DNA from: a candidate division WOR-3 bacterium
Lineage (GTDB): Bacteria; Hydrothermota; Tepidihabitantia; SM23-42
Length of the DNA stretch: 64,000 nucleotides
Direction of reading: 5' to 3'
NCBI GenBank assembly: GCA_020343595.1
Contig: CP070802.1
Coordinates: 132,989-196,988, forward strand
Positions 1 through 60,282 of this stretch are shown one piece after another. Under the pieces are notes generated by a model. It made no database searches, was not told the DNA's origin, and was given only the letters and a program-made list of their open reading frames with translations. The position numbers were made by a program, and so were the translations under genes. Positions within the stretch are counted from its first letter, which is position 1. The number at the start of each line of letters is the position of its first letter.

Positions 1-326
1 TTCTCAAGCACCTTCTGAAGAAAATCGATCCTGTAGGGACGAAGGAGCAACCCTGCCACTCCGGCAAAAATAGCTTTTTCGAGGTTCATAACCGCATTCC
101 GATCAGCGACAAGTATGATAGGAACTTCCTCATGCTGTTTTCTCAACTGATCGAGTATCGTCAATGCCGTTATGTCAAGGATACACAGATCGCATCTTTT
201 CTTCCTAACGGCCTTGCGCAATTCGCCAATGCTCGACACTTTAGTATTGCTTAACCCCAGTTGACTTAGATGACGGGAAAGAGTAGTGAGCCTAAGGCGG
301 TCCGGGTCGAAAACTAATGCTTCCAT
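1..326 (-). CDS. Response regulator receiver (CheY-like REC) domain protein, partial (C-terminal part lies beyond window start)
   Basis: ORF not in the supplied track. The reverse complement of 1-326 translates as MEALVFDPDRLRLTTLSRHLSQLGLSNTKVSSIGELRKAVRKKRCDLCILDITALTILDQLRKQHEEVPIILVADRNAVMNLEKAIFAGVAGLLLRPYRIDFLQKVLE. It has REC-like motifs: a CILDI acceptor Asp, PIILVADRN, and xxLLRPY. Its ATG (324-326) overlaps the TGA of the upstream cyclase gene (ATGA), implying translational coupling. Confidence 0.55.
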   Translation of the reverse strand, partial: MEALVFDPDRLRLTTLSRHLSQLGLSNTKVSSIGELRKAVRKKRCDLCILDITALTILDQLRKQHEEVPIILVADRNAVMNLEKAIFAGVAGLLLRPYRIDFLQKVLE

Positions 327-2593
327 CAAAGAGTCAAGACTTCATATAGCATCTTAATTCTCTTGTTATCTGTATCATACATGTTGTGGCGGTCATCTAT
401 GATGAAATCGTCGATACGCGCATCGACTATCGCCTTATTCTTGTTCAACTCGCCAAGCAAATGCGCGCCCTTCGGCACAACTGACACTTTGAGGTCAGAA
501 AAATTATAACCGTGCGTTGTCTCACGTAACTCCCGTAGGAGTTTGCAGTATTTCTCATAACTGCTTTCTTCAATGGGATACTCGAAGTTATCCGCATTGA
601 GGACGAGGTTTATCAATGTGGGAAGGTCACATATGATGACCGAACGGCCCGGTTGTCTCTCTCTTGAATACAGATTGGCATCGGCCAGGATCGGACCTAC
701 CAGGTCGGGATCCCCGTAGGAGTTGGGCGCGAAGATAACATCCTGGTCTGGCACTCCCGAAGCGATACCGACGCCGATCCGGAAAAGACTCTTGAACTCA
801 GGCGGCAGCAGCGCATAGGTTATACCATCCAGTTCGAGCGTTCGCTCGGCGACGTCGGCAAACCATTCCCGGTAATGCACGAAATTCGCCCGGATGAACT
901 CCTCCGCTCTCTGTACGATGTCACGCGCGCACAGAATCGCACGCTTTGCCGCGTCCACTGCAGGAATTATGTCGCACTCGCCACCCGAACATATTGAATA
1001 ACGAAGTTTCGTTCCCTTGCCGGTAACCGATTCGGTGTATAGATAGTTGTAGAGAGATCCTGAATTCTCGGAAAACCAGACCAGTCCTCCGTCACCGGTA
1101 TCCTTGAGCAGAAAACCATCATATCTCTTCACAACCTGTGCCATTTCCCTGGCAAATTTGTGCTTTATCCGTTGCTCCTTGACCGCATCGTTCAACTTGA
1201 TGCCCATGTACGATGAGCCCCGTATGTCGTACACCAATGTCGTCACGCATTTCCGATATCTACCCGCGTACTCTATGATCTCCCGCGGCTTTTCAGCCGC
1301 CTTTCCTCCCAGTTCAAGAACATTATTGCCGGTCAGAAAAACGGTCTTCAGATTCGCCAGATCAACAGTGACCCTCGGCGCTTCGTTCTCATCCGGCGGC
1401 AGGCAGCTGACAAGATTCAATAAACACTGGCCCATATGATCGGGGAGGATAGTTCTCTTCATGAACGAGTTGTATGCATCGATAAGCCGATCAATTTCTA
1501 ACTCGACCGAGATGAGTCCACGCTTCTCGAATTTTCTCAGCACGGAAACACTACGACTCTTTTTGCGATAGATCTCCTCCAGCTCCTGTGTAACAGACTT
1601 AGTGAAGTTCCTGTGTTCATCCTTTGTCAACGGCCCGAATCTGTACATGAAAACATATTCAGCAAATATCTCGCTTACCGGTTTCGTGACGTCCAACGAT
1701 CGTGTCTCTGCATAATGCTTGAGATTCTCTTCTTGTTGGAGGTTATCGATTATTTCCTTCTTCTTCCGTTGATAATCCTTGAGGTGATAGATATTGCCGA
1801 GGAACATCCGATCGAGCCTCGAGAAGAGATTGGAAACCTTCTGGGTAATCACGTTCGTATCAGCATCGTGCACCACATCCTTATCGAGGATATCATGCAG
1901 CCCCTGATTCGTCTCCGCGAAGAGACCTTCGAGTTGCTCCTTGATCCGGAATGAATACATATCAATTGTCTTGAGCTCCTCTTCAGACTTGCTTCGGACA
2001 TCGCGGAGGATTACCGATAGCTTCCTGATCAGTTTGGTGAGGGATGTTGCCGACAGATAGTTCAGATATATCGCCGGTATTTTCTCGACCGCATCTTTCA
2101 TACCGGAAATACCGAGACGCTCGACATCGGAAAGGAAATCAGGTAGCAGGGTCTCAACCCGTGCTCCGATGATACTCTTGTGCACAGCCAGGAATATATC
2201 GTGCGCAAGTGAAACCTCCCGCATGTCTTTGTTGTATTCATTTATCTTTTTCCGGGTGGTCGATTTTTCGATCATCTCGACCAGCTCCTTCGGGCACTTC
2301 TCAACGAGGGCTTCTGGTATGGGCATGCCCCGTTTTTTGTGACCAATAAACAGCGGTAATTCGAAACCCTCGTATTCACTGATCTTATGCCCCAGTTCGA
2401 GTATGAAATTACGCCGATTCTGGAAAACCTTGACCGGCGCCTTCGAAATGCCAAGACATGCCAGACCCTGTTCGATCGCCGAAAGACATTCTGCGTATCG
2501 TTGCTCACTGACAAATCTCTGCCCGATCATCTTGTAGTAATTGCTCTGCTCCTCCACGTGATCCTGCAGTACATTCATCCTGTGCGTGTTCAT
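326..2593 (-). CDS. Large cytoplasmic protein with a C-terminal class III nucleotidyl cyclase (adenylate/guanylate cyclase homology, CHD)-like domain (755 aa)
   Basis: Motifs read from the translation: TLVYDIRGSSYMG (like F-DIvGFT, metal Asp), LKDTGDGGLVWF (like KtiGDaym, second Asp), and RIGVGIASGV...GDPDLVGPILADANLYSRE (like rIGihtG...G..vN.AsR, with Asn and Arg retained). The ~430-aa N-terminal region is helical with no TM segment. It overlaps the upstream paralog by 4 nt. Confidence 0.6.
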   Translation of the reverse strand: MNTHRMNVLQDHVEEQSNYYKMIGQRFVSEQRYAECLSAIEQGLACLGISKAPVKVFQNRRNFILELGHKISEYEGFELPLFIGHKKRGMPIPEALVEKCPKELVEMIEKSTTRKKINEYNKDMREVSLAHDIFLAVHKSIIGARVETLLPDFLSDVERLGISGMKDAVEKIPAIYLNYLSATSLTKLIRKLSVILRDVRSKSEEELKTIDMYSFRIKEQLEGLFAETNQGLHDILDKDVVHDADTNVITQKVSNLFSRLDRMFLGNIYHLKDYQRKKKEIIDNLQQEENLKHYAETRSLDVTKPVSEIFAEYVFMYRFGPLTKDEHRNFTKSVTQELEEIYRKKSRSVSVLRKFEKRGLISVELEIDRLIDAYNSFMKRTILPDHMGQCLLNLVSCLPPDENEAPRVTVDLANLKTVFLTGNNVLELGGKAAEKPREIIEYAGRYRKCVTTLVYDIRGSSYMGIKLNDAVKEQRIKHKFAREMAQVVKRYDGFLLKDTGDGGLVWFSENSGSLYNYLYTESVTGKGTKLRYSICSGGECDIIPAVDAAKRAILCARDIVQRAEEFIRANFVHYREWFADVAERTLELDGITYALLPPEFKSLFRIGVGIASGVPDQDVIFAPNSYGDPDLVGPILADANLYSRERQPGRSVIICDLPTLINLVLNADNFEYPIEESSYEKYCKLLRELRETTHGYNFSDLKVSVVPKGAHLLGELNKNKAIVDARIDDFIIDDRHNMYDTDNKRIKMLYEVLTL

Positions 2594-5007
2594 CTCAAGG
2601 TCTCCGTGTAGATCTCAAAAAGCAATTTAGACCGTTCTACCTTCTCAAGTTGGATATCAGCGCTTTCATCGATCACTATATCATTGTCGTCGAGCACGAT
2701 CTTCAGTTTTTCCGTATCCGCCATCTCCCGTCCGAACTTGGCGGCGAATATTTTGTGCAGATCAAAGATAAACCCCTTGCGCGTTGCCCGCTGCCTGATC
2801 CAGTACTCCAATCCCTGCTGGATATTCAACTGCACGGGATCAATCCGCAAGCCGGCTTCGCTGAGGAACGAAAATCGCTCAACATTGAGCAGCGTATTGT
2901 ACACTGTTGCGTCATCACAGATGATAGTGGACTTGCCCTTTGCTTTAACCGTTGAATAGAGGTTCGCCTCCCGGACAAGCATCCCGGTCAAATCGTATTC
3001 ACCAAAAGCATTCTTCTCCAGATACAACTCACGCGGATAATGACCCGAGGCAATACCGATGCCTACTTGAAAGATTGTCTGATAGGAAGGCGGTAATGTC
3101 GCATAGGTCGCTCCTTCAAAATCGATCTCGCGTTCTTCCGCTTCACGGAACCAATCATGATATCGATGTAGGTTCCTTTGGACAAACAGCCCGGCTTCCT
3201 GGACCATTTCTATCGCACAGCGGACTGCTCCCAGCATATTGCCCGACTCCGGTTCTAATGTCTTCTCGTCCTTTATGTCATAGTGGTTCTTGGCAAAGAA
3301 TATAACACCACCATCGCCGGTATCTTTAACAGGAATGCCACCATACTTCTCGGCAACATAAAGCATCGATTCCTGGAAGAGATTCCTTATCGCACTTTCC
3401 TTTTCGGCGTTCTTCAATTTCGCACCCATGAAGGTCGAACCCCGTATATCGTACACCAAGACTGACACGAGATTCTTATAGCGCTCTACGTTGACATCCG
3501 AAACGGTACCATCGGATGGTACAATGTTCACATCCTTTTCAATCATCGAAACACGACCACAAAGTGCCTCCTCTCCGAGGTAACGGATACCCTCGGGGGT
3601 CATCATGTCCGAAAGCTTCGGATAGTAATCAACCAACTCCTCCAGCAGGATGCACTTCACAAGCGGCGTAATGATCTCATCGACGATCTTGGTGAACTTA
3701 CCGATAATGAGCCGGCTGTCATATTTTTCCTTCAGCAGTCCAGGCGTTTTGTATTGGCTCATCAACTGCTGAGCGGCCTCATCGTTCTTCAGATCGTTCA
3801 AGGCATCCCGGATTATCAACTGCAGCTGTTCCTCACCAATTTTATCGTGTCTGTGCAGCACTTGCATTACGCACGGATCCCACTCGTCCTTAACGACCAG
3901 CCGGCCGAGATCAGCCGGCTTATAGCGCATAACCTCCTTAAGATTGTTCTCCCGGTCTAGACATTCCTGATACTCCCATTTCAATATCTTCAGATCATAT
4001 GCATTACCGATCACCGAGCGATGCAATCTTTTCACCATGTTCTCGATGGCCTCCTCGGTCGAGAAATCTTCGGCAAGATTGATGAGACTGTCGCTCATTA
4101 TATTCGTCGTCTCGCTTATCTTCCTCCGAATACTCTGCATCTTTTCGTTGATCGACCTCTTCTTTTCCGAAATATCAGCCATCAATCGGCGTCCGCGCAT
4201 CTGCAGTGCATCGATGATGAGCGTCAGCGCGCTCTCGTCGGGAAAGAAAAACCTGGATCTCAAAATATCACCGATCGCTTTTTTGTTGAGCGCTGGTAGT
4301 TTGCCCAGGGCATCCATGATCCTTTTTGTTTCATCAGTGTAGTAGTAGCGTATCATTCCCTTCATTATTGCGGTGAACACCGGTTCCGGGAGACCCTTCT
4401 TCATGAAGGTGGGATTCAGGACCTTCATCATATCAACATAACTCGTCTTCGGCACAAAAGGCACGTGTTCGTATGAATCAATTATTATATTGTCAACGAC
4501 AACTGTTCGCCTGGTCAGCGAGTTTCTGATATAACTGAACAGTTGATTGACGACTGCCCCGAACCTTTCCGACAAAACAATCTTTGTTTCTGCGGACTCG
4601 GGGAGCAGCTTGCGGGTGAGGATATCACGCAGTAACTTCCGATTAGCGATTTCAAATACCACAACATTAGAACTGATACCTTGGACAAAATCCTGATATA
4701 TGTTGAATATATGTTTGCTATACCGTTCAAAAAACTGTTCCCATTGATCTATCTGAGATTCATCCCCAAGAAACTTTATATAATTAGAAATAAAGTCGCC
4801 CTGCAGCGTGAAAATCCTTCGACCTAGATAGACAAGTTCCTTGCCGTTGTTGTGCTCCAACTTCTCAATGAACGGATCGCGCCTCGTGATCTTCTTCAGT
4901 ACCGAAAAGTAACGTGTGAAATTCGCGTTATCGCGATATGTGGCGTGTAGTTTCTCGTAGTATGGTGTCTCGTGAATTACCTTATCCTCGATATCCTTGT
5001 CGATCAT
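2590..5007 (-). CDS. Paralogous CHD-like nucleotidyl cyclase domain protein (805 aa); Arg of the C-terminal N..R pair replaced (ANLYSTV)
   Basis: Motifs VLVYDIRGSTFMG, VKDTGDGGVIFFAK and QVGIGIASG...GEYDLTGMLVREANLYST. Same architecture as the 755-aa neighbour. Its start ATG overlaps the mltG stop (ATGA at 5004-5007). Confidence 0.6.
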   Translation of the reverse strand: MIDKDIEDKVIHETPYYEKLHATYRDNANFTRYFSVLKKITRRDPFIEKLEHNNGKELVYLGRRIFTLQGDFISNYIKFLGDESQIDQWEQFFERYSKHIFNIYQDFVQGISSNVVVFEIANRKLLRDILTRKLLPESAETKIVLSERFGAVVNQLFSYIRNSLTRRTVVVDNIIIDSYEHVPFVPKTSYVDMMKVLNPTFMKKGLPEPVFTAIMKGMIRYYYTDETKRIMDALGKLPALNKKAIGDILRSRFFFPDESALTLIIDALQMRGRRLMADISEKKRSINEKMQSIRRKISETTNIMSDSLINLAEDFSTEEAIENMVKRLHRSVIGNAYDLKILKWEYQECLDRENNLKEVMRYKPADLGRLVVKDEWDPCVMQVLHRHDKIGEEQLQLIIRDALNDLKNDEAAQQLMSQYKTPGLLKEKYDSRLIIGKFTKIVDEIITPLVKCILLEELVDYYPKLSDMMTPEGIRYLGEEALCGRVSMIEKDVNIVPSDGTVSDVNVERYKNLVSVLVYDIRGSTFMGAKLKNAEKESAIRNLFQESMLYVAEKYGGIPVKDTGDGGVIFFAKNHYDIKDEKTLEPESGNMLGAVRCAIEMVQEAGLFVQRNLHRYHDWFREAEEREIDFEGATYATLPPSYQTIFQVGIGIASGHYPRELYLEKNAFGEYDLTGMLVREANLYSTVKAKGKSTIICDDATVYNTLLNVERFSFLSEAGLRIDPVQLNIQQGLEYWIRQRATRKGFIFDLHKIFAAKFGREMADTEKLKIVLDDNDIVIDESADIQLEKVERSKLLFEIYTETLR

Positions 5008-5960
5008 TGGTATCGCTCCTTTGCCAGAGCGTGCTCTCGGTATGTCCGGGAGAAGTGATGGCGTCCATCACCCTTTGCCACGAAGTAGAGATAATCAACA
5101 TCGGCTGGACTCACCGTGGCCATTATGGAACTCTCACCCGGCGAACATATTGGCCCGGGAGGAAGACCAAGGTGCAAATATGTATTATACGGCGAGTTCA
5201 CCATGAGATCCTGGTCGGTCAACTTCTGCTTGGAAACTGGATGCTCAGCTGTCTTCAATATGTAGAAGATGGTCGCGCATGATTCCAGCGGTCTCTTCGA
5301 CTTCATCCGGTTCAAAAAAACACGGGCGATGATCGGCCGTTCATCCTCATATTTTGCCTCCCTTTCCACAATCGATGCGATTATGACCGCCCGGTGCAGC
5401 GAATCGTCATTCTCAAGGCCGTATTTCGGAATCCTGCGCTGGAAGTTACGGACCATCATTGCGATCACCGATTCCTCGTTCTGCATTGTGCTCATAGAAT
5501 AGGTATCAGGGAAGAGATAACCCTCGAGCGACCCACGGTCAAGGCCGAGTGCATGGATCAAACTGTCATCGCTGCATAATTCCACGAACCGCACATAATC
5601 CACCAATCCATGAGCGGCAAGGACCTGTCCGGTTTCGTATATCGTCGAACCCTCCGGTATCGTAACAATAACCTCAGATCTTCCACCACTTCTTAGTTGG
5701 TTTATCAAGTACAGAGGGTTCTTGTATTTGTATAGTTCATAGATGCCGGCTTTCAGCTCTCTTTCCTGCCCCGACACCTTCAGTAGAAGCAGAAATTCAT
5801 CTACATTCCTTACGATCTCATGCTCGGCAAGGAAAACCGCGATCTCCCGCGCGTTCGCATTGTCCGGGATCGTTACCTCGGTTCGTCCAAGATTCAGGGG
5901 CTGCCACCATACCACAACGATGACCAAGATGAGTCCAAATATCAGTAATTTCCTGTTCAT
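5004..5960 (-). CDS. mltG: Endolytic murein transglycosylase MltG (YceG family)
   Basis: N-terminal TM helix and YceG-like motifs (VIIASIVEREA, SPYNTYLHLGLPPGPICSPG). Overlaps ruvX by 4 nt. Confidence 0.85.
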   Translation of the reverse strand: MNRKLLIFGLILVIVVVWWQPLNLGRTEVTIPDNANAREIAVFLAEHEIVRNVDEFLLLLKVSGQERELKAGIYELYKYKNPLYLINQLRSGGRSEVIVTIPEGSTIYETGQVLAAHGLVDYVRFVELCSDDSLIHALGLDRGSLEGYLFPDTYSMSTMQNEESVIAMMVRNFQRRIPKYGLENDDSLHRAVIIASIVEREAKYEDERPIIARVFLNRMKSKRPLESCATIFYILKTAEHPVSKQKLTDQDLMVNSPYNTYLHLGLPPGPICSPGESSIMATVSPADVDYLYFVAKGDGRHHFSRTYREHALAKERYQ

Positions 5961-6367
5961 GACTGCCTTTTGAGCAGGTACTCTTCAAGCATGAGCGAAG
6001 CCGCAACACGGTCAATATCTTCCTTCTTTGCGCTCAAACCGGCTTCTTTGAATTTGTTGACCGCAAATTTGCTCAGGTAACGTTCATCCCATTTCTGAAC
6101 TTCGATGTCGAGCTGTTGCTTCAACCTCTCTATGAACCGTTCGATCTTCCGACTGAACTCAGTAGGTTCACCCCGCAAAGAGACCGGATTACCCACAATA
6201 ATCAAGCCTACGTTGTTCTCACTGGCGATACACTTAAGTCGCTTAATTAAATCAGCAATCGACTTCGGCCTTATCGTTACCAATGGCTGAGGTATAGTAC
6301 ACAACGGATCGGTTATTGCCACGCCAACCCTTTTCTGTCCATAATCGACTGCCATAATTCTCGTCAT
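5957..6367 (-). CDS. ruvX: Putative pre-16S rRNA nuclease / Holliday junction resolvase-like YqgF (RuvX)
   Basis: MTRIMAVDYGQKRVGVAITD...GLIIVGNPVSLRGEPTEF matches YqgF. The start was moved from the tool's 6451 to the ATG at 6367 (conserved MxxDxG N-terminus). A TTGACA-N16-TATAAT promoter lies 10 nt upstream. Confidence 0.75.
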   Translation of the reverse strand: MTRIMAVDYGQKRVGVAITDPLCTIPQPLVTIRPKSIADLIKRLKCIASENNVGLIIVGNPVSLRGEPTEFSRKIERFIERLKQQLDIEVQKWDERYLSKFAVNKFKEAGLSAKKEDIDRVAASLMLEEYLLKRQS

Positions 6368-6377
6368 GTTTTCACAA

Positions 6378-6405
6378 ATTATACCGATATATTTATTTCT
6401 GTCAA
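6378..6405 (-). promoter_or_regulatory. Sigma70-like promoter for ruvX-mltG-cyclase operon (TTGACA-N16-TATAAT on minus strand)
   Basis: The plus strand shows tgtcaa (6400-6405) and attata (6378-6383). The -10 box ends 10 nt before the ruvX ATG, giving a near-leaderless transcript. Confidence 0.5.
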
Positions 6406-6411
6406 TATTTA

Positions 6412-6439
6412 TTGACTTTGAACGCTTATTTTGTAGAAT
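6412..6439 (+). promoter_or_regulatory. Sigma70-like promoter (TTGACT-N16-TAGAAT) for ubiA-family gene, divergent from ruvX promoter
   Basis: ttgact at 6412-6417 and tagaat at 6434-6439. Its -35 is part of the near-palindrome tgtcaatatttattgact that it shares with the opposing promoter. Confidence 0.45.
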
Positions 6440-7257
6440 ATGTAGTGGCATATTTGCACATAATTCGCCCGGTGAACTGTATCATAACCTCGATTTCCGT
6501 ACTGGTTGGTGCGTGGATAGCAAGGCAAATAACACTTTCAAGCACTCTGGTCATCGCCGCGCTCATTGGTTTTACCGTATGTGCCTTTGGTAATCTCATA
6601 AATGACATCAAGGATATTGAAATTGACCGGATCAATAATCCAATGCGTCCTCTTCCGTCAGGCAAAGTCAAAAAGAATATCATCTGGTTCATGGCGTTCG
6701 CGTGCATGGTAATCTCCTCAACGGCTTCCTTCTTTCTTGGTAGAATTCCGTTTCTCATCGTAATTGCCGCACTCGTCATGCTCATATTCTATTCCGTATT
6801 TCTAAAGAAAACGGTTTTTGGCAATATCACCGTGGCTCTAATAGCAGGACTGAGCTTCATTTTCGGCGGTGTCGTTTCCAGCAACATGCTGGCTGTCATA
6901 CCAGCAATATTCGCGATACTGATACACATGCCGCGCGAAATCGTGAAAGATGTGATGGACATGAAGGGCGACAGAATGACCGGTGCCGTTACCATTCCAA
7001 TAATGCTTGGCCCCTCACGGGCATACAGCATCAGTGCCATCTTCCTCGGCCTCTTGTGTCTGGTGCTTCCCATACCCTATATCGCTGGCATGCTGGGCAC
7101 TGCTTATATCATTATCGTCCTTGCCGGAGCCTATCCTCTTCTCGGCTATATGATATGGCTGCTTCTGAGAAAACCACCCGCCACTACCCTACCCCTCATT
7201 AGCAATCTCATAAAAGCATCGATGATCGTGGGGTTGCTGGCAATGATCATTTCATGA
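6412..7257 (+). CDS. UbiA family prenyltransferase (integral membrane)
   Basis: NDIKDIEIDRINNPMRPLPSG matches the NDxxDxxxD prenyl-diphosphate binding motif, and the protein has multiple TM helices. The tool start is a TTG at 6412; the true start is uncertain and may be the GTG at 6445 (MAYLHIIRPVN), which would be leaderless. Confidence 0.7.
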   Translation: MTLNAYFVEYVVAYLHIIRPVNCIITSISVLVGAWIARQITLSSTLVIAALIGFTVCAFGNLINDIKDIEIDRINNPMRPLPSGKVKKNIIWFMAFACMVISSTASFFLGRIPFLIVIAALVMLIFYSVFLKKTVFGNITVALIAGLSFIFGGVVSSNMLAVIPAIFAILIHMPREIVKDVMDMKGDRMTGAVTIPIMLGPSRAYSISAIFLGLLCLVLPIPYIAGMLGTAYIIIVLAGAYPLLGYMIWLLLRKPPATTLPLISNLIKASMIVGLLAMIIS

Positions 7258-8006
7258 TCGAAACCGTAATATTGGGGATCGTCCAAGGACTCACCGAGTT
7301 CCTGCCCGTTTCGAGCTCGGGCCACCTGGCCGTGCTTGAAAACATGCTGGGTATCGCCGAACCGATGACACTCGCCGTCTTTCTGCATTTCGGTACGTTC
7401 CTTGCCGTCATCGCTTTCTTCTTCAAACCACTCTTAGATCTATTTCGAGGAATCTTCACCGGTGATCGTCCGAGCACAGTATATGTAGGCAAGATCCTCG
7501 TCGGTACCATCCCAATCGTGGTTGCAGGGATACTCTTAAGATCATTGGTTATCCAGACCTTCAATAATATGAATATTGTGGCTATCCTACTCGGTTTCAC
7601 AGGTGCCGTCGTACTGCTCACCGGTGTAGTGCCAAAGAGAAATAAACAGGTAACTCTTGTCTCAGCGGTTTTGATCGGTATCGCTCAGGTGCTCGCGATC
7701 CTGCCCGGCATATCCAGATCCGGCATGACCATTTCAGCCGGATTATTCAATAGAACAGATCCGGAACAAGCTTTCCGTTTCTCTTTTCTGTTATCGATAC
7801 CAGCCGTCCTCGGCGCCAATCTCCTCGAACTGCAAAATCTCTCGGGAATCACAAACCTTCCGGTGCTGATCGTGGGAATGCTCTGCAGCTTTGTTAGCGG
7901 GCTGATCGCCCTTGCAGTCCTGCGGCGCGCAGTCTACAGAAAATTCCATTTCTTCGGAGTCTACTGCCTGATAATCAGTGCAATATTATTAATAATTCAA
8001 ACATGA
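7254..8006 (+). CDS. uppP: Undecaprenyl-diphosphatase UppP (BacA)
   Basis: GLTEFLPVSSSGHL and PGISRSGMTISAGL signature motifs. Confidence 0.9.
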   Translation: MIETVILGIVQGLTEFLPVSSSGHLAVLENMLGIAEPMTLAVFLHFGTFLAVIAFFFKPLLDLFRGIFTGDRPSTVYVGKILVGTIPIVVAGILLRSLVIQTFNNMNIVAILLGFTGAVVLLTGVVPKRNKQVTLVSAVLIGIAQVLAILPGISRSGMTISAGLFNRTDPEQAFRFSFLLSIPAVLGANLLELQNLSGITNLPVLIVGMLCSFVSGLIALAVLRRAVYRKFHFFGVYCLIISAILLIIQT

Positions 8007-9946
8007 AGATAATTCAAATAAGTGTATTGATCATTTTCTTGGCAGCCATGTCCACGGGAGATGTTCACCGCCACCGAAAGGATAACCTGCTGCTGGAGAA
8101 CATCCCTGAAATACCCGTCTCGGTTGCATCCCGCCTGCAGCCCTACCAGAACGTACGGGCGGCATCGTTCCGTGACTGGCTACCGCAGGACGCGGGGATA
8201 TTGATACGAACAAGGTTTGGCGAGTCTGCCCAGATCCACGTTGTCGAATCACCCGGCGGCATGCGCCGCCAGATCACGTTCTTTGACGAGCCGGTCGGCG
8301 AATGCAAGGTCTGCCCTGACCCGAAAAAAGCGGTACTGCTGCTCACCAAAGATACGGGTGGTAATGAGGTCGATCAAATATACGAATACAACTACGCAAC
8401 CGGTGCCTACAGAATGCTTAGTGATGGAGAAACAAAGAACAATGCTGTAGTATGGTCGAGAAAAGGCGATATCTTCGCCTTTCGTTCCGACGAGCGCAAC
8501 CGGAGAGACTATGATATCTACCTCGGCGACCTGCGCGGGAGAAAGAGTTTCCGTTGTATACTGAAGGAAGGAGGCTACTGGTACCCGGTTGAATTCTCGC
8601 CCGACGACCGCAAATTACTGGTCAAGAAATATGTCTCATCGGACGAGTCGTATTACTACATCATCGATCTGAAGAACCAAAAGACTACACCCATATATCA
8701 TGATACGAGCAAGATATCATATGGAACCGCCCGCTGGTCCCCGGACATGAAAGGAGTTTACGTTGTCTCGGACAAGTTTAGCGATTTCAAACAGCTGTTA
8801 TACCTCGATCTCCAAACCGGGAACTTCGAAATACTTACAAAACAAATCACCTGGGATATTGGTGAAGTCAAAATTTCGCCGGCCGGGACCGAACTTGTTT
8901 TCACCAGCAATGAGAACGGCTTCAGCCGGCTATACATAATGGACATCAAAACCCGCAGTCTCAGCCGGGTCAGCCTGCCGGATGCACAGATCTATAACCT
9001 GGCGTTCAAACCTGACGGTAACGAACTCGCGATCACATTGAACCGACCGACTCAGCCCGGCGATGTCTACACCCTGAACCTGAGGACGAAGAAATTTATG
9101 CGCTGGACGTACAGCGAGATCGGAGGGCTGGACACACTATCATTCGTACCGCCGAGACTGATACACTATGAAACATTCGACAGCATCCAGGGAAAACCCC
9201 GTAGCATTCCTGCGTACTACTACGAACCCAGGAAATTCAAGCCGCCCTACCCTGTTCTGATCGAATGCCACGGAGGTCCGGCAGTACAGGAAAAACCCTA
9301 TTTTTCGTATTTGTTCCAGTTCTTTCTCAATGACATGGGCATTGCGGTAATCGCACCGAACATCCGCGGCTCAACTGGTTACGGAAGGGAATATATGCTG
9401 CTCGACAATGGCTACAACAGAGAGAACTCGGTGAAGGATATCGGCGCACTGCTTGACTGGATAAAGAAACAGCCGCAGCTCAACAGCCGGCGTGTCGCAA
9501 TAGGCGGCTCTTCATACGGCGGCTACATGGCACTCGCAGCAATGGTGCACTACGGGGACCGGCTTGCCTGCGGCATCGACATGCTCGGTATCAGCAATTT
9601 TGTAACGTTCCTCCAAAATACGGGCAAATACCGCCAGGACCTCCGCCGCGAGGAGTACGGCGACGAACGAGATCCGGCAATGCGCGAGTTCCTAACACGC
9701 ATATCACCACTCACCAGTGCGGACCTCATAAAGAAACCCATGTTCATTGTCCAGGGGCTCAACGATCCGCGAGTCCCGGCCTCCGAGGCTGAGCAAATCG
9801 TCAAGGCAGTACGCAAGAACAACGTCGAAGTCTGGTATCTCTTGGCCGAGGATGAGGGTCACGGTTTCGGCAAGAAATCGAACCGGAACTTCTTCCAGCA
9901 GGCAATGGTCCTGTTCCTGGAGAAATATCTACTCGGAAAGAAATAA
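8003..9946 (+). CDS. S9 family serine peptidase (prolyl oligopeptidase/acylaminoacyl-peptidase type) with N-terminal beta-propeller
   Basis: Signal peptide, a propeller region, and a C-terminal alpha/beta hydrolase domain with GGSSYGGYM (GxSxG nucleophile). Confidence 0.8.
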   Translation: MKIIQISVLIIFLAAMSTGDVHRHRKDNLLLENIPEIPVSVASRLQPYQNVRAASFRDWLPQDAGILIRTRFGESAQIHVVESPGGMRRQITFFDEPVGECKVCPDPKKAVLLLTKDTGGNEVDQIYEYNYATGAYRMLSDGETKNNAVVWSRKGDIFAFRSDERNRRDYDIYLGDLRGRKSFRCILKEGGYWYPVEFSPDDRKLLVKKYVSSDESYYYIIDLKNQKTTPIYHDTSKISYGTARWSPDMKGVYVVSDKFSDFKQLLYLDLQTGNFEILTKQITWDIGEVKISPAGTELVFTSNENGFSRLYIMDIKTRSLSRVSLPDAQIYNLAFKPDGNELAITLNRPTQPGDVYTLNLRTKKFMRWTYSEIGGLDTLSFVPPRLIHYETFDSIQGKPRSIPAYYYEPRKFKPPYPVLIECHGGPAVQEKPYFSYLFQFFLNDMGIAVIAPNIRGSTGYGREYMLLDNGYNRENSVKDIGALLDWIKKQPQLNSRRVAIGGSSYGGYMALAAMVHYGDRLACGIDMLGISNFVTFLQNTGKYRQDLRREEYGDERDPAMREFLTRISPLTSADLIKKPMFIVQGLNDPRVPASEAEQIVKAVRKNNVEVWYLLAEDEGHGFGKKSNRNFFQQAMVLFLEKYLLGKK

Positions 9947-14236: not shown

Positions 14237-15487
14237 GTGATGGCCTACAGTAATAAGGCAAGAGGCTTCTTTGCGAACGAACTGACCGGTATCAGGGAAG
14301 CAGGAACCTTCAAGGAGGAAAGATTCATAGAATCACCCCAGGCCGCCAACATCAAAGTGGAATTCCCGGCCGGATCACCGCCAAAAGAAGTTCTCAACTT
14401 CTGCGCAAACAACTACCTTGGTTTATCGAGTCATCCAGAAGTTGTGACCGCAGCGCATGACGGTCTGAAGGAACGTGGTTACGGTATGTCGTCAGTGCGT
14501 TTCATCTGCGGTACCCAGGACATTCATCGGGAACTCGAAGAGAAGTTGACGAAATTCCTGGGCACCGAGGACACCATCCTCTTTCCTTCATGCATGGATG
14601 CCAATGCCGGCGTGTTCGATGTTGTCTTGGGCAAAGAAGATGCCATGATCGCGGACCGTCTCGTTCACGCCTCCATCGTCGATGGAATGAGACTGTGCAA
14701 GGCGCAATTATTCAATTACAAGCATTCAAATATGGAGCACCTCGAGGAGAAATTGAAGGAGAGCCAGGACTGCCGCTTCAGGCTCGTGATCACCGACGGC
14801 GTATTCTCCATGGACGGCGATGTCGCCAAACTAGATGAGATATGCAACCTTGCCGAAAAATATGATGCCATGGTGCTCGTCGATGACTCCCACGCCACCG
14901 GCTTCATGGGCAAGACCGGAAGAGGCACGCACGAACACTGCGGTGTGCTCGGACGCATTGATATCATAACGACAACCATGGGCAAGGCGCTGGGTGGCGC
15001 GTCGGGTGGATGCGTCAGTGGACGCAAAGAGATTGTCGACCTGTGCCGCCAGCGTGCCCGACCTTACTTGTTCTCGAACACGGTACCGCCGGTTATTGTC
15101 GCCGCTGCCAGTAAAGTACTCGACATTATCAGCAAGACGACCGACCGCCGCGACAAGCTCGAGGCGAATACCGTATTCTTTAGAGAAAAAATGACGGCCG
15201 CAGGATTTGACATTAAGGAAGGCGTGCATCCGATAGTACCGATCATGCTTTACAATGCAAAACTTGCACAGGACATGGCCCGTGATCTTTATAATGAAGG
15301 TATCTATGTAATAGGTTTTTCGTTCCCGGTCGTGCCCAAGGGCCAGGCCCGTATCAGAGTGCAAATCTCTGCCGGACATGAGCAAGCGCATATTGAACGT
15401 GCGATCGCAGCATTCACGAAGATAGGCGAGAAATACAAGATACTGGGCAAGAAGAAGAACGAGATAATCGATATGTATGGACTATGA
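14237..15487 (+). CDS. kbl: 2-amino-3-ketobutyrate CoA ligase (glycine C-acetyltransferase), PLP-dependent alpha-oxoamine synthase
   Basis: High similarity to E. coli Kbl along its whole length (NFCANNYLGL, ITDGVFSMDGD, TTTMGKALGG with the Lys). The likely true start is the ATG at 14240, 6 nt after GGAGGT. Confidence 0.85.
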   Translation: MMAYSNKARGFFANELTGIREAGTFKEERFIESPQAANIKVEFPAGSPPKEVLNFCANNYLGLSSHPEVVTAAHDGLKERGYGMSSVRFICGTQDIHRELEEKLTKFLGTEDTILFPSCMDANAGVFDVVLGKEDAMIADRLVHASIVDGMRLCKAQLFNYKHSNMEHLEEKLKESQDCRFRLVITDGVFSMDGDVAKLDEICNLAEKYDAMVLVDDSHATGFMGKTGRGTHEHCGVLGRIDIITTTMGKALGGASGGCVSGRKEIVDLCRQRARPYLFSNTVPPVIVAAASKVLDIISKTTDRRDKLEANTVFFREKMTAAGFDIKEGVHPIVPIMLYNAKLAQDMARDLYNEGIYVIGFSFPVVPKGQARIRVQISAGHEQAHIERAIAAFTKIGEKYKILGKKKNEIIDMYGL

Positions 15488-15612
15488 ACCATCGACGATG
15501 GAAAAATCAAATCTCAATATCCAAATACCAAACGATTTCAAGAACCAAATATCCAAATTGGGTATTGGGATTTTAGCATTATTTGTAATTTGATGCTTGG
15601 TGTTTGAGATTT

Positions 15613-16748
15613 ATGTCATCCGCGGAGAGGACATCTGACGTTATTGTGATCGGTGGTGGCATCATTGGCTGTGCTACTGGTTACTACCTGGCAAAGAAGG
15701 GGCTGAAAGTCAATCTCCTGGAAAGGGACTACCTAACCTCAGGTTCCACAGGCCGCTGTATCGGAGGAATCCGACAGCAATTCTCAACTCCCCTCAGTAT
15801 AAGAGTCGCGATGGAATCGATGAAGAAGTTCGCCGCGATGAATGATGAACTGGGTCAAGCCGTTGAGTTCCATCAAGGCGGATATCTATTTCTTGCGCAC
15901 AGCGAGGAAAAGAAACAAACATACCTGAAACTCATTGAAATCCAGCGGAAAATGGGGCTCGATGTCGAATTCATAGACGTTGGCGAGGTCGAAAAACTGG
16001 TGCCGGGCATCGACACGGAGGACCTCCTGGGCGGTGCCTACTGTGCGAGCGACGCGCAGGCGAACCCGTTTCTGATCGTTGACGGCTATGCACGGAAGAT
16101 AAAGGAAAAAGGACATGTCTTCACACATAAGGAAGTTACGCGGATAAATGTCGAGAACGGAAAGATCGTTTCGGTCAGCACGCGTGACAACGAAGATTTC
16201 CACGCGCCGATCGTGGTCAATGCGGCCGGACCCTTTGCCCGTGACGTCGCTCAGATGGTCAACATCGATATACCGGTCTATCCTGAACGGCATGAAGCAA
16301 TGATCACCGAACAGATGGAGCGGTTCTTCGACATGATGATCGTTGATTACCGACCGGACGGATGCTATTTCAACCAGAAGTGGCCACATGGAAGCATTAT
16401 TGGATGCTACACCCCGATACCGAATGTCCCCGGATATGATCTGGGCACGTCATTTGAATTTGCCAAGGAAATGGGTCGCCGGATGGGACGGCTAATACCA
16501 AGATTGAGTGATACAAAGATCATACGGCAATGGTCGGGAAGCTATGAAATGACGCCGGATGGTAATCCGATCCTTGATGAATCCGACGTTGCCGGTTTCT
16601 GGATCGTGGGCGGTATGTGTGGTCACGGATTCATGTTGGGGCCGGAGATCGCTTGGCTTGCTGCCGAATACATCGCCGAAGGAAAACCCCCATATGACAT
16701 CACGGAATTCGCCCTGCACCGTGATTTCGTCGGTAAAGAGGTGATGAA

Positions 16749-16752
<4 letters not shown>
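15613..16752 (+). CDS. FAD-dependent oxidoreductase (DAO family; glycine/D-amino-acid/sarcosine oxidase-like)
   Basis: VIVIGGGIIGCATGYYLAKKG dinucleotide-binding motif. The start was trimmed from the tool's TTG (15604) to the ATG at 15613. Confidence 0.7.
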
Positions 16753-17857
<1,105 letters not shown>

Positions 17858-17956
17858 ACCAGCAAGCATAATAATTTGATCCGTCGTTTTCTGCACAATA
17901 AGTAGCATGAGAGTCATGTAAAATAGTGTTTATACAGTAATTTCTAAACATCGCTC

Positions 17957-17984
17957 TTGACACAAAATGAATTATATATATAAT
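17957..17984 (+). promoter_or_regulatory. Sigma70-like promoter TTGACA-N16-TATAAT for pilMNOPQ
   Basis: ttgaca at 17957-17962 and tataat at 17979-17984, sitting in an AT-rich intergenic region. Confidence 0.5.
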
Positions 17985-18013
17985 TACACAATTAAATGTG
18001 AAAAGGAGTCAAC

Positions 18014-19054
18014 ATGTTCGGGAGAAAGAAAAAAGTACTTGGTCTTGATATTGGGTCAAGCCAAACAAAAATAGTTGAACTTAGCGCAGGTAAGAGCAAG
18101 AAGTTATTAAATTTTGGGATATCTAAGGTCTTACCTGACGCTATAGTTGAAGGTGAAATAATCGATCGGGAGGCAGTTCTGGACTCCGTCAGAACATTGA
18201 TTGAAACCAAAGGCTTTTCCACAAAAGACGTTGTCCTCGGTATTGCGGGCAGAGACGTCATCATAAAGAGGATCACAATGGACCGCATGAGTGAGGCTGA
18301 TACCAGGGAGCAGATCAAATGGGAAGCCGAGCAGTATGTGCCCTTTGATATCAACGAAGTATCACTCGATTTCGACGTCGTTAACCCGAACTTCGGAGAT
18401 AATCAACAGGAAGTCATTCTTGTCGCCGCGAAAAATGAACTCATCAACAACCTCACTTCTCTCTTGAAAGACCTTAATCTCACACCGATCATCATTGACA
18501 CCACTGCCTTTGCAATTCAGCACGTCTACGAACACAGCTACGAAGTGGTCACCGATGAAATCATCTGTCTCATCCACCTCGGCGCGGGAATGACGGTTAT
18601 CAATGTCATAAAAGGCGGTTCGAGTCTGTCGGCACGTGATGTCTACTATGGCGTTAATGCATACATAAGCAAGCTCCAAAAGGAAGTCGGATTCAACTAC
18701 GAGGATGCTGCGAATGCGGCCAAAGGGACTGTGCCGCCGGGCGTGTCTCAAGATTCAATCCAGGGTGTCTTCGAATCCTTCGTGAGTGATCTTGGTACCC
18801 ACATCGAGAGAAGCCTGCAATTTCTCTCGACGGTAACCGGAGAGGAAAAGGTCGGCCGCATGTACATTTCGGGTGGTGGTTCTTTGATACCGAATCTCAC
18901 TGACTACCTCAAGAGGCGCTTTGGAATACCGATCGAGGCACTCAATCCCTTCAAGAACATCGTTTATGATCCGAATATTTTCGTACCTATGGGCGCGGAT
19001 GCAGCCGGGCCGATCCTGGCTCAGGCTGTTGGTCTGGCATTAAGGGGGGAATAA
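18014..19054 (+). CDS. pilM: Type IV pilus assembly protein PilM (actin-like ATPase fold)
   Basis: LGLDIGSSQTKIVEL N-terminus and typical PilM length. RBS AAAAGGAG precedes it. Confidence 0.85.
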   Translation: MFGRKKKVLGLDIGSSQTKIVELSAGKSKKLLNFGISKVLPDAIVEGEIIDREAVLDSVRTLIETKGFSTKDVVLGIAGRDVIIKRITMDRMSEADTREQIKWEAEQYVPFDINEVSLDFDVVNPNFGDNQQEVILVAAKNELINNLTSLLKDLNLTPIIIDTTAFAIQHVYEHSYEVVTDEIICLIHLGAGMTVINVIKGGSSLSARDVYYGVNAYISKLQKEVGFNYEDAANAAKGTVPPGVSQDSIQGVFESFVSDLGTHIERSLQFLSTVTGEEKVGRMYISGGGSLIPNLTDYLKRRFGIPIEALNPFKNIVYDPNIFVPMGADAAGPILAQAVGLALRGE

Positions 19055-54793: not shown

Positions 54794-54796
54794 TTC

Positions 54797-54950
54797 GTTC
54801 CCTGCAGTGCCCGTGATCGGTATGAAGTCTTGAGCCAACACCCATCTTAAGGGAGCCAAGTTCGATCAGGGATTTTACCCGAATTCGACTGGCGCCCACC
54901 TTAACCTTGGGTTCAAAGACTTTTTACCACACGGCACTTGCGGGGAGCTT
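54797..54950 (+). ncRNA. ssrS: Candidate 6S RNA (ssrS) between zapA and rny
   Basis: ~150-nt non-coding gap with long-range complementarity between its ends (gaagtctt/aagacttt; gtgcccgtg/cacggcac) closing a central unpaired region. The zapA-ssrS synteny is known from E. coli. Boundaries are approximate. Confidence 0.3.

Positions 54951-60208: not shown

Positions 60209-60282
<74 letters not shown>

Follow-up and report, generated by a model that had tools for sequence, protein, structure and literature searches.

All class III nucleotidyl cyclases dimerise head-to-tail, and each active site of such a dimer combines the Asp pair of one subunit with the Lys, the Asp and helix alpha4 of the other. 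In this study we analysed a 64,000-nt stretch of DNA from a candidate division WOR-3 bacterium (contig CP070802.1, positions 132,989 to 196,988; hereafter the window), at the left end of which two adjacent genes, designated A and B, encode proteins with divergent C-terminal domains of this class, followed by the beginning of a gene for a putative diguanylate cyclase. Class III catalysis involves two metal-binding Asp residues, a substrate-binding pair (Lys/Asp for ATP) and a transition-state Asn and Arg, the Asn being dispensable in Rv1900c (PMC4886424). In Leptospira interrogans the binding of cyclic AMP (cAMP) to the GAF domain of the GAF-GGDEF diguanylate cyclase Lcd1 sets its output of cyclic di-GMP (c-di-GMP) (PMC8846402). 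The parts of the locus that correspond to these systems are listed below by window position, A-like and B-like being the names that we use for the two flavours of the family.

2590..5007, minus strand: gene A, 805 amino acids (aa)
3493..5007, minus strand: N-terminal ~505 residues of A, soluble and all-helical
2590..3492, minus strand: C-terminal ~300 residues of A, divergent class III cyclase domain, A-like
326..2593, minus strand: gene B, 755 aa
1274..2593, minus strand: N-terminal ~440 residues of B, helical and homologous to those of A (BLASTP A-versus-B alignment from B residue 167)
326..1273, minus strand: C-terminal ~315 residues of B, divergent class III cyclase domain, B-like
2590-2593, minus strand: ATGA overlap of A and B
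1..326, minus strand: fifth gene of the string, first 108 codons only, running off the window edge; TGATG 1-nt overlap with B

The two proteins are paralogs (26% identity across 623 aa, E 2e-54 by BLASTP). On balance, we think that they constitute a divergent, probably heterodimeric adenylyl cyclase that drives a GAF-gated c-di-GMP synthase. A and B would dimerise head-to-tail via their C-terminal cyclase domains, in this lineage probably as an AB heterodimer, and the dimer would convert ATP to a purine cyclic nucleotide, most likely cAMP, a product proposed because of the Lys/Asp specificity pair. The cAMP would bind to the GAF domain of the co-transcribed REC-GAF-GGDEF diguanylate cyclase and, as in Lcd1 of Leptospira, set its c-di-GMP output. 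The helical N-terminal regions, ~450-500 residues long, are likely modules that would carry the input signal or mediate dimerisation.

The homology of A and B to class III cyclases was detectable only with profiles and structure. The initial annotation, made from the sequence alone, had read a class III scaffold in both C-terminal regions and had expected these domains to score as nucleotidyl cyclases. This expectation formally failed, as Guanylate_cyc (Pfam PF00211) was absent from A and B even at E ≤ 1. Individual Pfam scans of 46 diverse family members gave no recurrent match either, the NCBIfam scan of A and B returned nothing significant, and in the PADLOC scan PycC appeared for B at a non-significant E of 0.029, with nothing for A. 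Single-sequence searches of the PDB yielded CyaB at E 0.25 and, apart from that, only coiled-coil noise. While these searches were silent, a profile of 70 family sequences matched beta1-beta3 of P. aeruginosa CyaB (3r5g) with E 5e-4, and P0276, a PF00211 protein, matched the family profile at E 7e-4. In an hhalign comparison with 105 aligned, genuine PF00211 domains, the whole domain was matched at 94.8% probability and E 1e-8. In addition, the C-terminal 331 residues of B were modelled by AlphaFold with a predicted local distance difference test score of 84 and a predicted template modelling score of 0.85, and the top 50 Foldseek matches of this model in the PDB were all class III adenylyl/guanylyl cyclases (best 5e-8). 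On the basis of profiles and predicted structure, the class III fold (cyclase homology domain) can be assigned securely to the C-terminal regions of both A and B, and the scaffold proposed in the initial annotation stands, with the metal Asp pair and the Lys/Asp pair kept.

Identity to the bacterial adenylyl cyclases CyaB and CyaC (Spirulina, 1wc1), among the closest known systems, is only 12-22%. A and B differ from these in the absence of the alpha4 Arg, the beta4 Arg and PF00211 detection, in extra insertions within the domain (a long alpha3/arm region and, at B 519-540, a beta-hairpin), in the ~450-500-residue helical N-terminus of no known relative and in the existence of two paralogous flavours. 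The hairpin comprises 22 residues between beta3 and alpha3 (974-1039, minus strand); it is also present in most family members, is deleted in the WOR-3 A proteins and measures 0-22 residues in other A-like proteins. A few members carry public-pipeline labels such as "class 3 adenylate cyclase", "Guanylate cyclase domain-containing protein" or "adenylate/guanylate cyclase domain-containing protein", but no specific name for any member was found among the public labels, and literature searches found no paper on the A/B family or on WOR-3 cyclases. The family DUF2652 (PMC4886424) is similarly a computationally recognised, divergent class III-like bacterial family in which the Asp pair is kept and the transition-state residues are partly lost. 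However, it is unrelated to A and B: its members are single-domain proteins of ~250 aa from Actinobacteria, Bacteroidetes and Proteobacteria, and A and B do not match its Pfam model at E ≤ 1.

The residues of A and B at the catalytic positions are as follows, G+n being counted from the Gly of the D-x-x-G motif.

First metal-binding Asp: B D456, A D520
Second metal-binding Asp: B D501, A D565
Substrate Lys, in K-x-x-G-D: B K497, A K561
Substrate Asp, in D-x-x-G: B D630, A D672
Canonical position of the transition-state Asn (G+4): B A637, A R679
Canonical position of the transition-state Arg (G+8): Leu in both A and B
Further alpha4 residues: A N682 (G+7) and T686 (G+11); B N640 (G+7) and R644 (G+11)

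Both HMMER and hhalign aligned the metal Asp residues and the Lys of the first half of the domain unambiguously to their canonical counterparts. In an alignment of 36 representatives of at least 600 aa, D456, K497 and D501 were each conserved in 35/36 sequences and D630 in 36/36. The D630-x-x-G633 motif (D672 and G675 in A) paired with the canonical D-x-x-G, and alpha4 was aligned without a gap. In hhalign this ungapped register came out with the whole family, with B by itself and with the single-copy group by itself, and the A-only global run broke down over alpha4. The register was confirmed by B-like relatives that read G-x-L-V-N-E/D-A, which in this frame equals the canonical tVNlA. Asn occupied G+4 in 13 of the 36 representatives, every one of them B-like; neither A nor B has it there. 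Judged from the alignment, the half of the catalytic machinery that handles metal and base is retained in the family, and the phosphate and transition-state half is rebuilt.

The motifs on which the initial annotation had relied (YDIRGS, KDTGDGG, IGxGIASG and ANLYS, the last continued as ANLYSRE in B and ANLYSTV in A) were found in both proteins, but its equation of ANLYSR with the canonical VNlAsR is three residues out of register according to both hhalign and the AlphaFold helix boundaries. We rejected that register, which works only if three residues are inserted between the helix and the invariant D-x-x-G. The Arg that it singled out, B R644, lies at G+11, and the contrast that it drew between Arg in B and Thr in A is not conserved (Met 19 and Arg 10 among B orthologs, Lys 20 and Thr 7 among A orthologs). 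The Asn of ANLYS, at G+7, is found in 26 of 27 A orthologs; the B orthologs have His (19) or Asn (9). The candidacy of R605 as the canonical beta4 Arg was also rejected: the canonical position is G607, which R605 precedes by two residues on the same face of the strand.

Across the family, the state of beta4 covaries with that of G+4, and this defines the two flavours. B-like proteins have LF-R-x-G in beta4 (R605 in B) together with Asn, Asp, Ala or Ser at G+4. In A-like proteins beta4 reads IF-Q-x-G (Q647 in A), G+4 is invariably Arg, G+7 is Asn, and Lys is the usual residue at G+11. The cluster numbers of the flavours are 16 (A-like) and 20 (B-like). Of the columns conserved in distant single-copy relatives, 32 are uniquely kept in the cyclase domain of B, against 14 in that of A. 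The G+4 residue of B is Ala or Ser in 38 of 41 adjacent A/B pairs and Asn or Asp at unpaired loci. Given the head-to-tail composition of class III sites, this asymmetry fits one complete and one degenerate composite site, as suggested by the aligned residues. The complete site would consist of D456, D501 and R605 of B with K561, D672, R679 and N682 of A, and the degenerate one of the Asp pair and Q647 of A with K497, D630 and A637 of B.

In this respect A and B resemble the C1 and C2 domains of mammalian adenylyl cyclases and the alpha and beta subunits of soluble guanylyl cyclase: two diverged paralogous cyclase domains, presumably arranged head-to-tail, show a reciprocal asymmetry of residues facing the active site (R605 and a degenerate alpha4 in B; Q647, R679 and N682 in A). 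Unlike those, A and B are separate polypeptides from overlapping genes, and the asymmetric residues are non-canonical. The complementary degeneration that the initial annotation had seen thus survives as a reciprocal asymmetry (R605/Q647, A637/R679 and a swap at G+11), but it lies in residues other than those proposed and neither Asp pair is lost. The roles are also reversed, B looking C1-like and A looking C2-like.

A stricter version of our interpretation can be put forward only tentatively, its truth being less probable than its failure. It holds that A and B form an obligate heterodimer with one complete and one degenerate site, that the catalytic Arg has moved to alpha4 G+4 of the A subunit from alpha4 G+8 and beta4, that the product is hard-wired by gene adjacency, in several candidate phyla, to a GAF-gated diguanylate cyclase and that the input comes through a new ~500-residue helical region. 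If it is true, the pair would parallel mammalian C1/C2 or soluble guanylyl cyclase alpha/beta as an independent bacterial case, and the locus would be a dedicated cAMP-to-c-di-GMP relay under a new ~500-residue helical input domain.

The putative target of the relay is the product of the fifth gene. Since the window holds only its codons 1-108, its GAF and GGDEF features were read in locus L001, where gene A is 97% identical and the full partner gene (14682-16073) encodes a 463-aa REC-GAF-GGDEF protein (GAF 7e-16, GGDEF 8.5e-40). An RYGGDEY motif and an RxxD site are present, and RYGGDEY is conserved in four distant loci. The best PDB matches of the GAF domain were all GAF domains that bind the cyclic nucleoside monophosphates (cNMPs) cAMP or cGMP: PDE10A (1.4e-25), 5w10 (3.5e-25), PDE2A, PDE5 and CyaB2 (1.9e-22). 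GAF domains with other ligands matched at 1e-10 or worse. The second-best match, 5w10, is presumably the Lcd1 GAF structure, and the partner shares with Lcd1 a GAF-GGDEF core with a cNMP-type GAF. It differs from Lcd1 in the addition of a degenerate receiver (or, in some lineages, of a second GAF) and in that the gene of the presumed cNMP source directly precedes it in 74/77 loci.

The receiver of the partner had been noted in the initial annotation as a REC gene with an ATGA overlap. The REC match in the window is weak, just above the cut-off (Pfam Response_reg 3.3e-9), and the overlap is instead the 1-nt TGATG, with the start at 326. The acceptor Asp is present, but in both the window and L001 the domain is degenerate: Ala replaces the conserved Thr, Arg replaces the conserved Lys and five residues are deleted after beta3. 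From these substitutions the receiver looks non-phosphorylatable or atypical, and no histidine kinase was found near the partner gene. In L005 Glu occupies the acceptor position, and in L006, a distant relative, a second GAF stands in place of REC.

An exhaustive search revealed 63 relatives of A and B among 1.84 billion representative proteins, and a scan of one genome per species revealed 147, all from WOR-3/Stahlbacteria, TA06, Edwardsbacteria, UBP2, Cloacimonadota or unclassified metagenome-assembled genomes. Of the 147 matches 80 were listed, and the following counts are based on the 78 species-level loci retrieved together with the loci found earlier. A GAF-GGDEF gene lies within 200 nt on the same strand after 74 of the 77 B-like genes; the exceptions are L052, L074 and one further locus in which the missing partner is an artefact of open reading frame (ORF) boundaries. 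A B-like gene directly follows 41 of the 45 A-like genes, and 40 loci have a B-like gene without an adjacent A-like gene. The gene mltG lies directly upstream in 34/37 pair loci versus 1/40 B-like-only loci. We therefore rejected a general functional tie to ruvX/mltG, this linkage being confined to pair-bearing lineages. Because the partner linkage is nearly universal and the mltG linkage lineage-bound, the conserved functional unit, as judged from gene order, is the cyclase-like protein with its GAF-GGDEF partner, and a position next to ruvX-mltG is characteristic of the pair-bearing lineages. The cyclic-nucleotide signalling role suggested in the initial annotation is strengthened by this linked partner with its cNMP-type GAF.

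The L052 pair (2591-7755 and 7755-9900) belongs to a different lineage; its B keeps Asn at G+4, and the pair is followed by ~2 kb without an ORF of at least 100 aa in place of the GAF-GGDEF gene. L074 likewise lacks the partner. In L001 the GAF-GGDEF gene is followed by genes for a CBS-pair protein and two Na+/H+ exchangers (16135-18959), as in 18/37 pair loci, which might represent an output or a co-regulated link to ion homeostasis.

That the enzyme makes something other than cAMP, be it cGMP, some other signal derived from a nucleotide or, as Pycsar does, a pyrimidine cNMP, appears improbable. The Lys/Asp pair is the adenine signature, guanylyl cyclases using Glu with Cys/Ser and similar residues (PMC4886424), and the surroundings, made up of housekeeping and signalling genes, contain neither a Pycsar-type effector nor a defence context. 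The PycC match was not significant. A Pycsar defence reading was accordingly rejected, the neighbours being ruvX, mltG, GAF-GGDEF, CBS and antiporter genes.

Several observations weigh against an active heterodimeric adenylyl cyclase. Besides the silence of Pfam, the residue at G+8 is hydrophobic in 36/36 representatives (Leu, Ile, Phe or Val in 32/36) and never Arg or Lys, and the invariant G607 takes the place of the canonical beta4 Arg in the alignment. With both the alpha4 and the beta4 Arg lost, catalytic competence cannot be assumed. The metal Asp pair is kept in both paralogs, unlike in mammalian C2, and so is the Lys/Asp pair; classical pseudo-heterodimers differ from A and B in this respect. 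A basic residue at G+11 is kept in 41/41 pairs, by A (Lys or Arg) or by B (Arg; this is the case in the clade of the window), but this swap amounts to few evolutionary events and is only suggestive. The 40 B-like-only loci imply that a B homodimer may be sufficient. Finally, the cyclic-nucleotide ligand of the partner GAF is deduced from similarity only.

The missing Arg residues would be accounted for if the domains were pseudo-cyclases that bind ATP-Mg without cyclising it and act as sensors of nucleotide or energy state or as scaffolds that control the adjacent GAF-GGDEF enzyme through direct contact, the GAF ligand then being another one. A precedent exists in P. aeruginosa 6yii, a class III adenylyl cyclase-like fold that its depositors termed an ATP-binding protein and not a cyclase. 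However, 6yii belongs to a transcriptional regulator and is less similar in structure than the active cyclases are, and A and B keep all four metal and base residues. These Asp, Lys and Asp positions are near-invariant over several candidate phyla, which goes beyond the usual need of nucleotide binding. Moreover, family-invariant basic residues (R458, and R605 or the Arg at G+4) could stand in for the lost ones, the Asn is dispensable in Rv1900c (PMC4886424), and the conserved partner has a cNMP-type GAF. We regard the pseudo-cyclase explanation, the main rival, as rather unlikely.

We similarly consider it unlikely that A and B form separate, active homodimers, with B serving the GAF-GGDEF partner and A working independently, on a different input or output. 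Homodimers are the typical form of prokaryotic class III cyclases (PMC4886424), both paralogs keep the full D, D, K, D set, the B-like gene and its partner occur without an adjacent A-like gene at 40 loci, and A-like genes stand alone at L007, L075 and L084. Nevertheless, the translational coupling of 41/45 A-like genes to a B-like gene, the loss of the G+4 Asn from B specifically where it is paired and the reciprocal covariation of the R605/Q605 and G+4 states all argue against separate homodimers, as do the similar cluster numbers of the two flavours. In addition, one genome has both flavours at distinct loci on separate contigs, B-like with the partner in L062 and A-like in L084. One of the solitary A-like proteins, P0119 (734 aa), is encoded at L007 4768-6972 and L008 8001-10205, with valS on one side and rplQ, which ends the ribosomal-protein/rpoA operon, on the other, and has neither a B-like nor a GGDEF neighbour.

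No transmembrane segments were detected in A or B (maximum Kyte-Doolittle 19-mer 1.28 and 1.48, respectively). The N-terminus of A contains a long helical hairpin (residues 258-313 and 318-360). The N-terminal region of B has no Pfam match, and no relatives of the helical regions of A and B were detectable.

The A/B module is real, conserved and uncharacterised. The class III cyclase fold and the cNMP-GAF control of a GGDEF enzyme are already known; what is new is the invisibility to curated models, the rebuilt catalytic helix, the two-flavour paralog system and the N-terminal region without a known relative. Should A and B be active, class III sequence space would reach into a region that curated models miss, and the supposedly essential alpha4 Arg would be replaceable from elsewhere. 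The near-obligatory linkage to a cNMP-type GAF-GGDEF protein would then also be a simple case of one second messenger controlling the synthesis of another. The two flavours offer a natural bacterial system for the evolution of homodimeric cyclases into asymmetric heterodimers, and the module is a first way into the signalling of uncultured WOR-3, TA06 and Cloacimonadota bacteria. Should the domains be inactive, the diguanylate cyclase would have in this family a pseudo-cyclase partner that is well conserved, and this too would be informative.

In the window A and B are preceded by mltG and ruvX. All four genes are on the minus strand, and each neighbouring pair shares a 4-nt ATGA overlap.

5004-5007, minus strand: ATGA overlap of mltG and A
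5004..5960, minus strand: mltG, YceG-like endolytic transglycosylase, 318 aa (Pfam YceG 1.1e-78)
5957-5960, minus strand: ATGA overlap of ruvX and mltG
5957..6355, minus strand: ruvX, YqgF-type Holliday junction resolvase-like (Pfam RuvX 8.9e-33)
6378..6405, minus strand: sigma-70-type promoter just upstream of ruvX, TTGACA-16 nt-TATAAT, 12/12 consensus

The initial annotation gave A and B as overlapping ORFs of 805 and 755 aa, and both their lengths and the 4-nt overlap agree with ours. It had also proposed that the whole set is co-transcribed with ruvX and mltG from a consensus promoter. The tight, translationally coupled string behind such a promoter, the only 12/12 site within 1..7400, supports this; the ruvX-mltG embedding is lineage-specific. 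The 164-aa ruvX of the ORF finder begins at 6451, upstream of the promoter, so that the promoter lies within this over-long ORF. Orthologs of ruvX have 132-135 aa, and from these lengths the true start is probably 6355 or 6367. With the -10 box ending at 6378, transcription is expected to begin only ~4-16 nt away from these candidate starts, so that the leader is probably very short or absent.

Two 10/12 promoter-like sites are present on the plus strand at 6316-6439, facing the opposite way to the ruvX promoter. The divergent plus-strand genes at 6412-9946 encode a UbiA-family prenyltransferase, BacA/UppP (undecaprenyl-diphosphatase) and an S9 peptidase. L001 and L003 show the same arrangement, in which envelope-lipid-carrier genes stand back-to-back with ruvX-mltG. 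Further along the window, and unrelated to the cyclase finding, Rfam identified a 6S/SsrS RNA at 54796-54950 on the plus strand (76 bits, E 3e-13) and a tRNA gene at 60209-60282, also on the plus strand.

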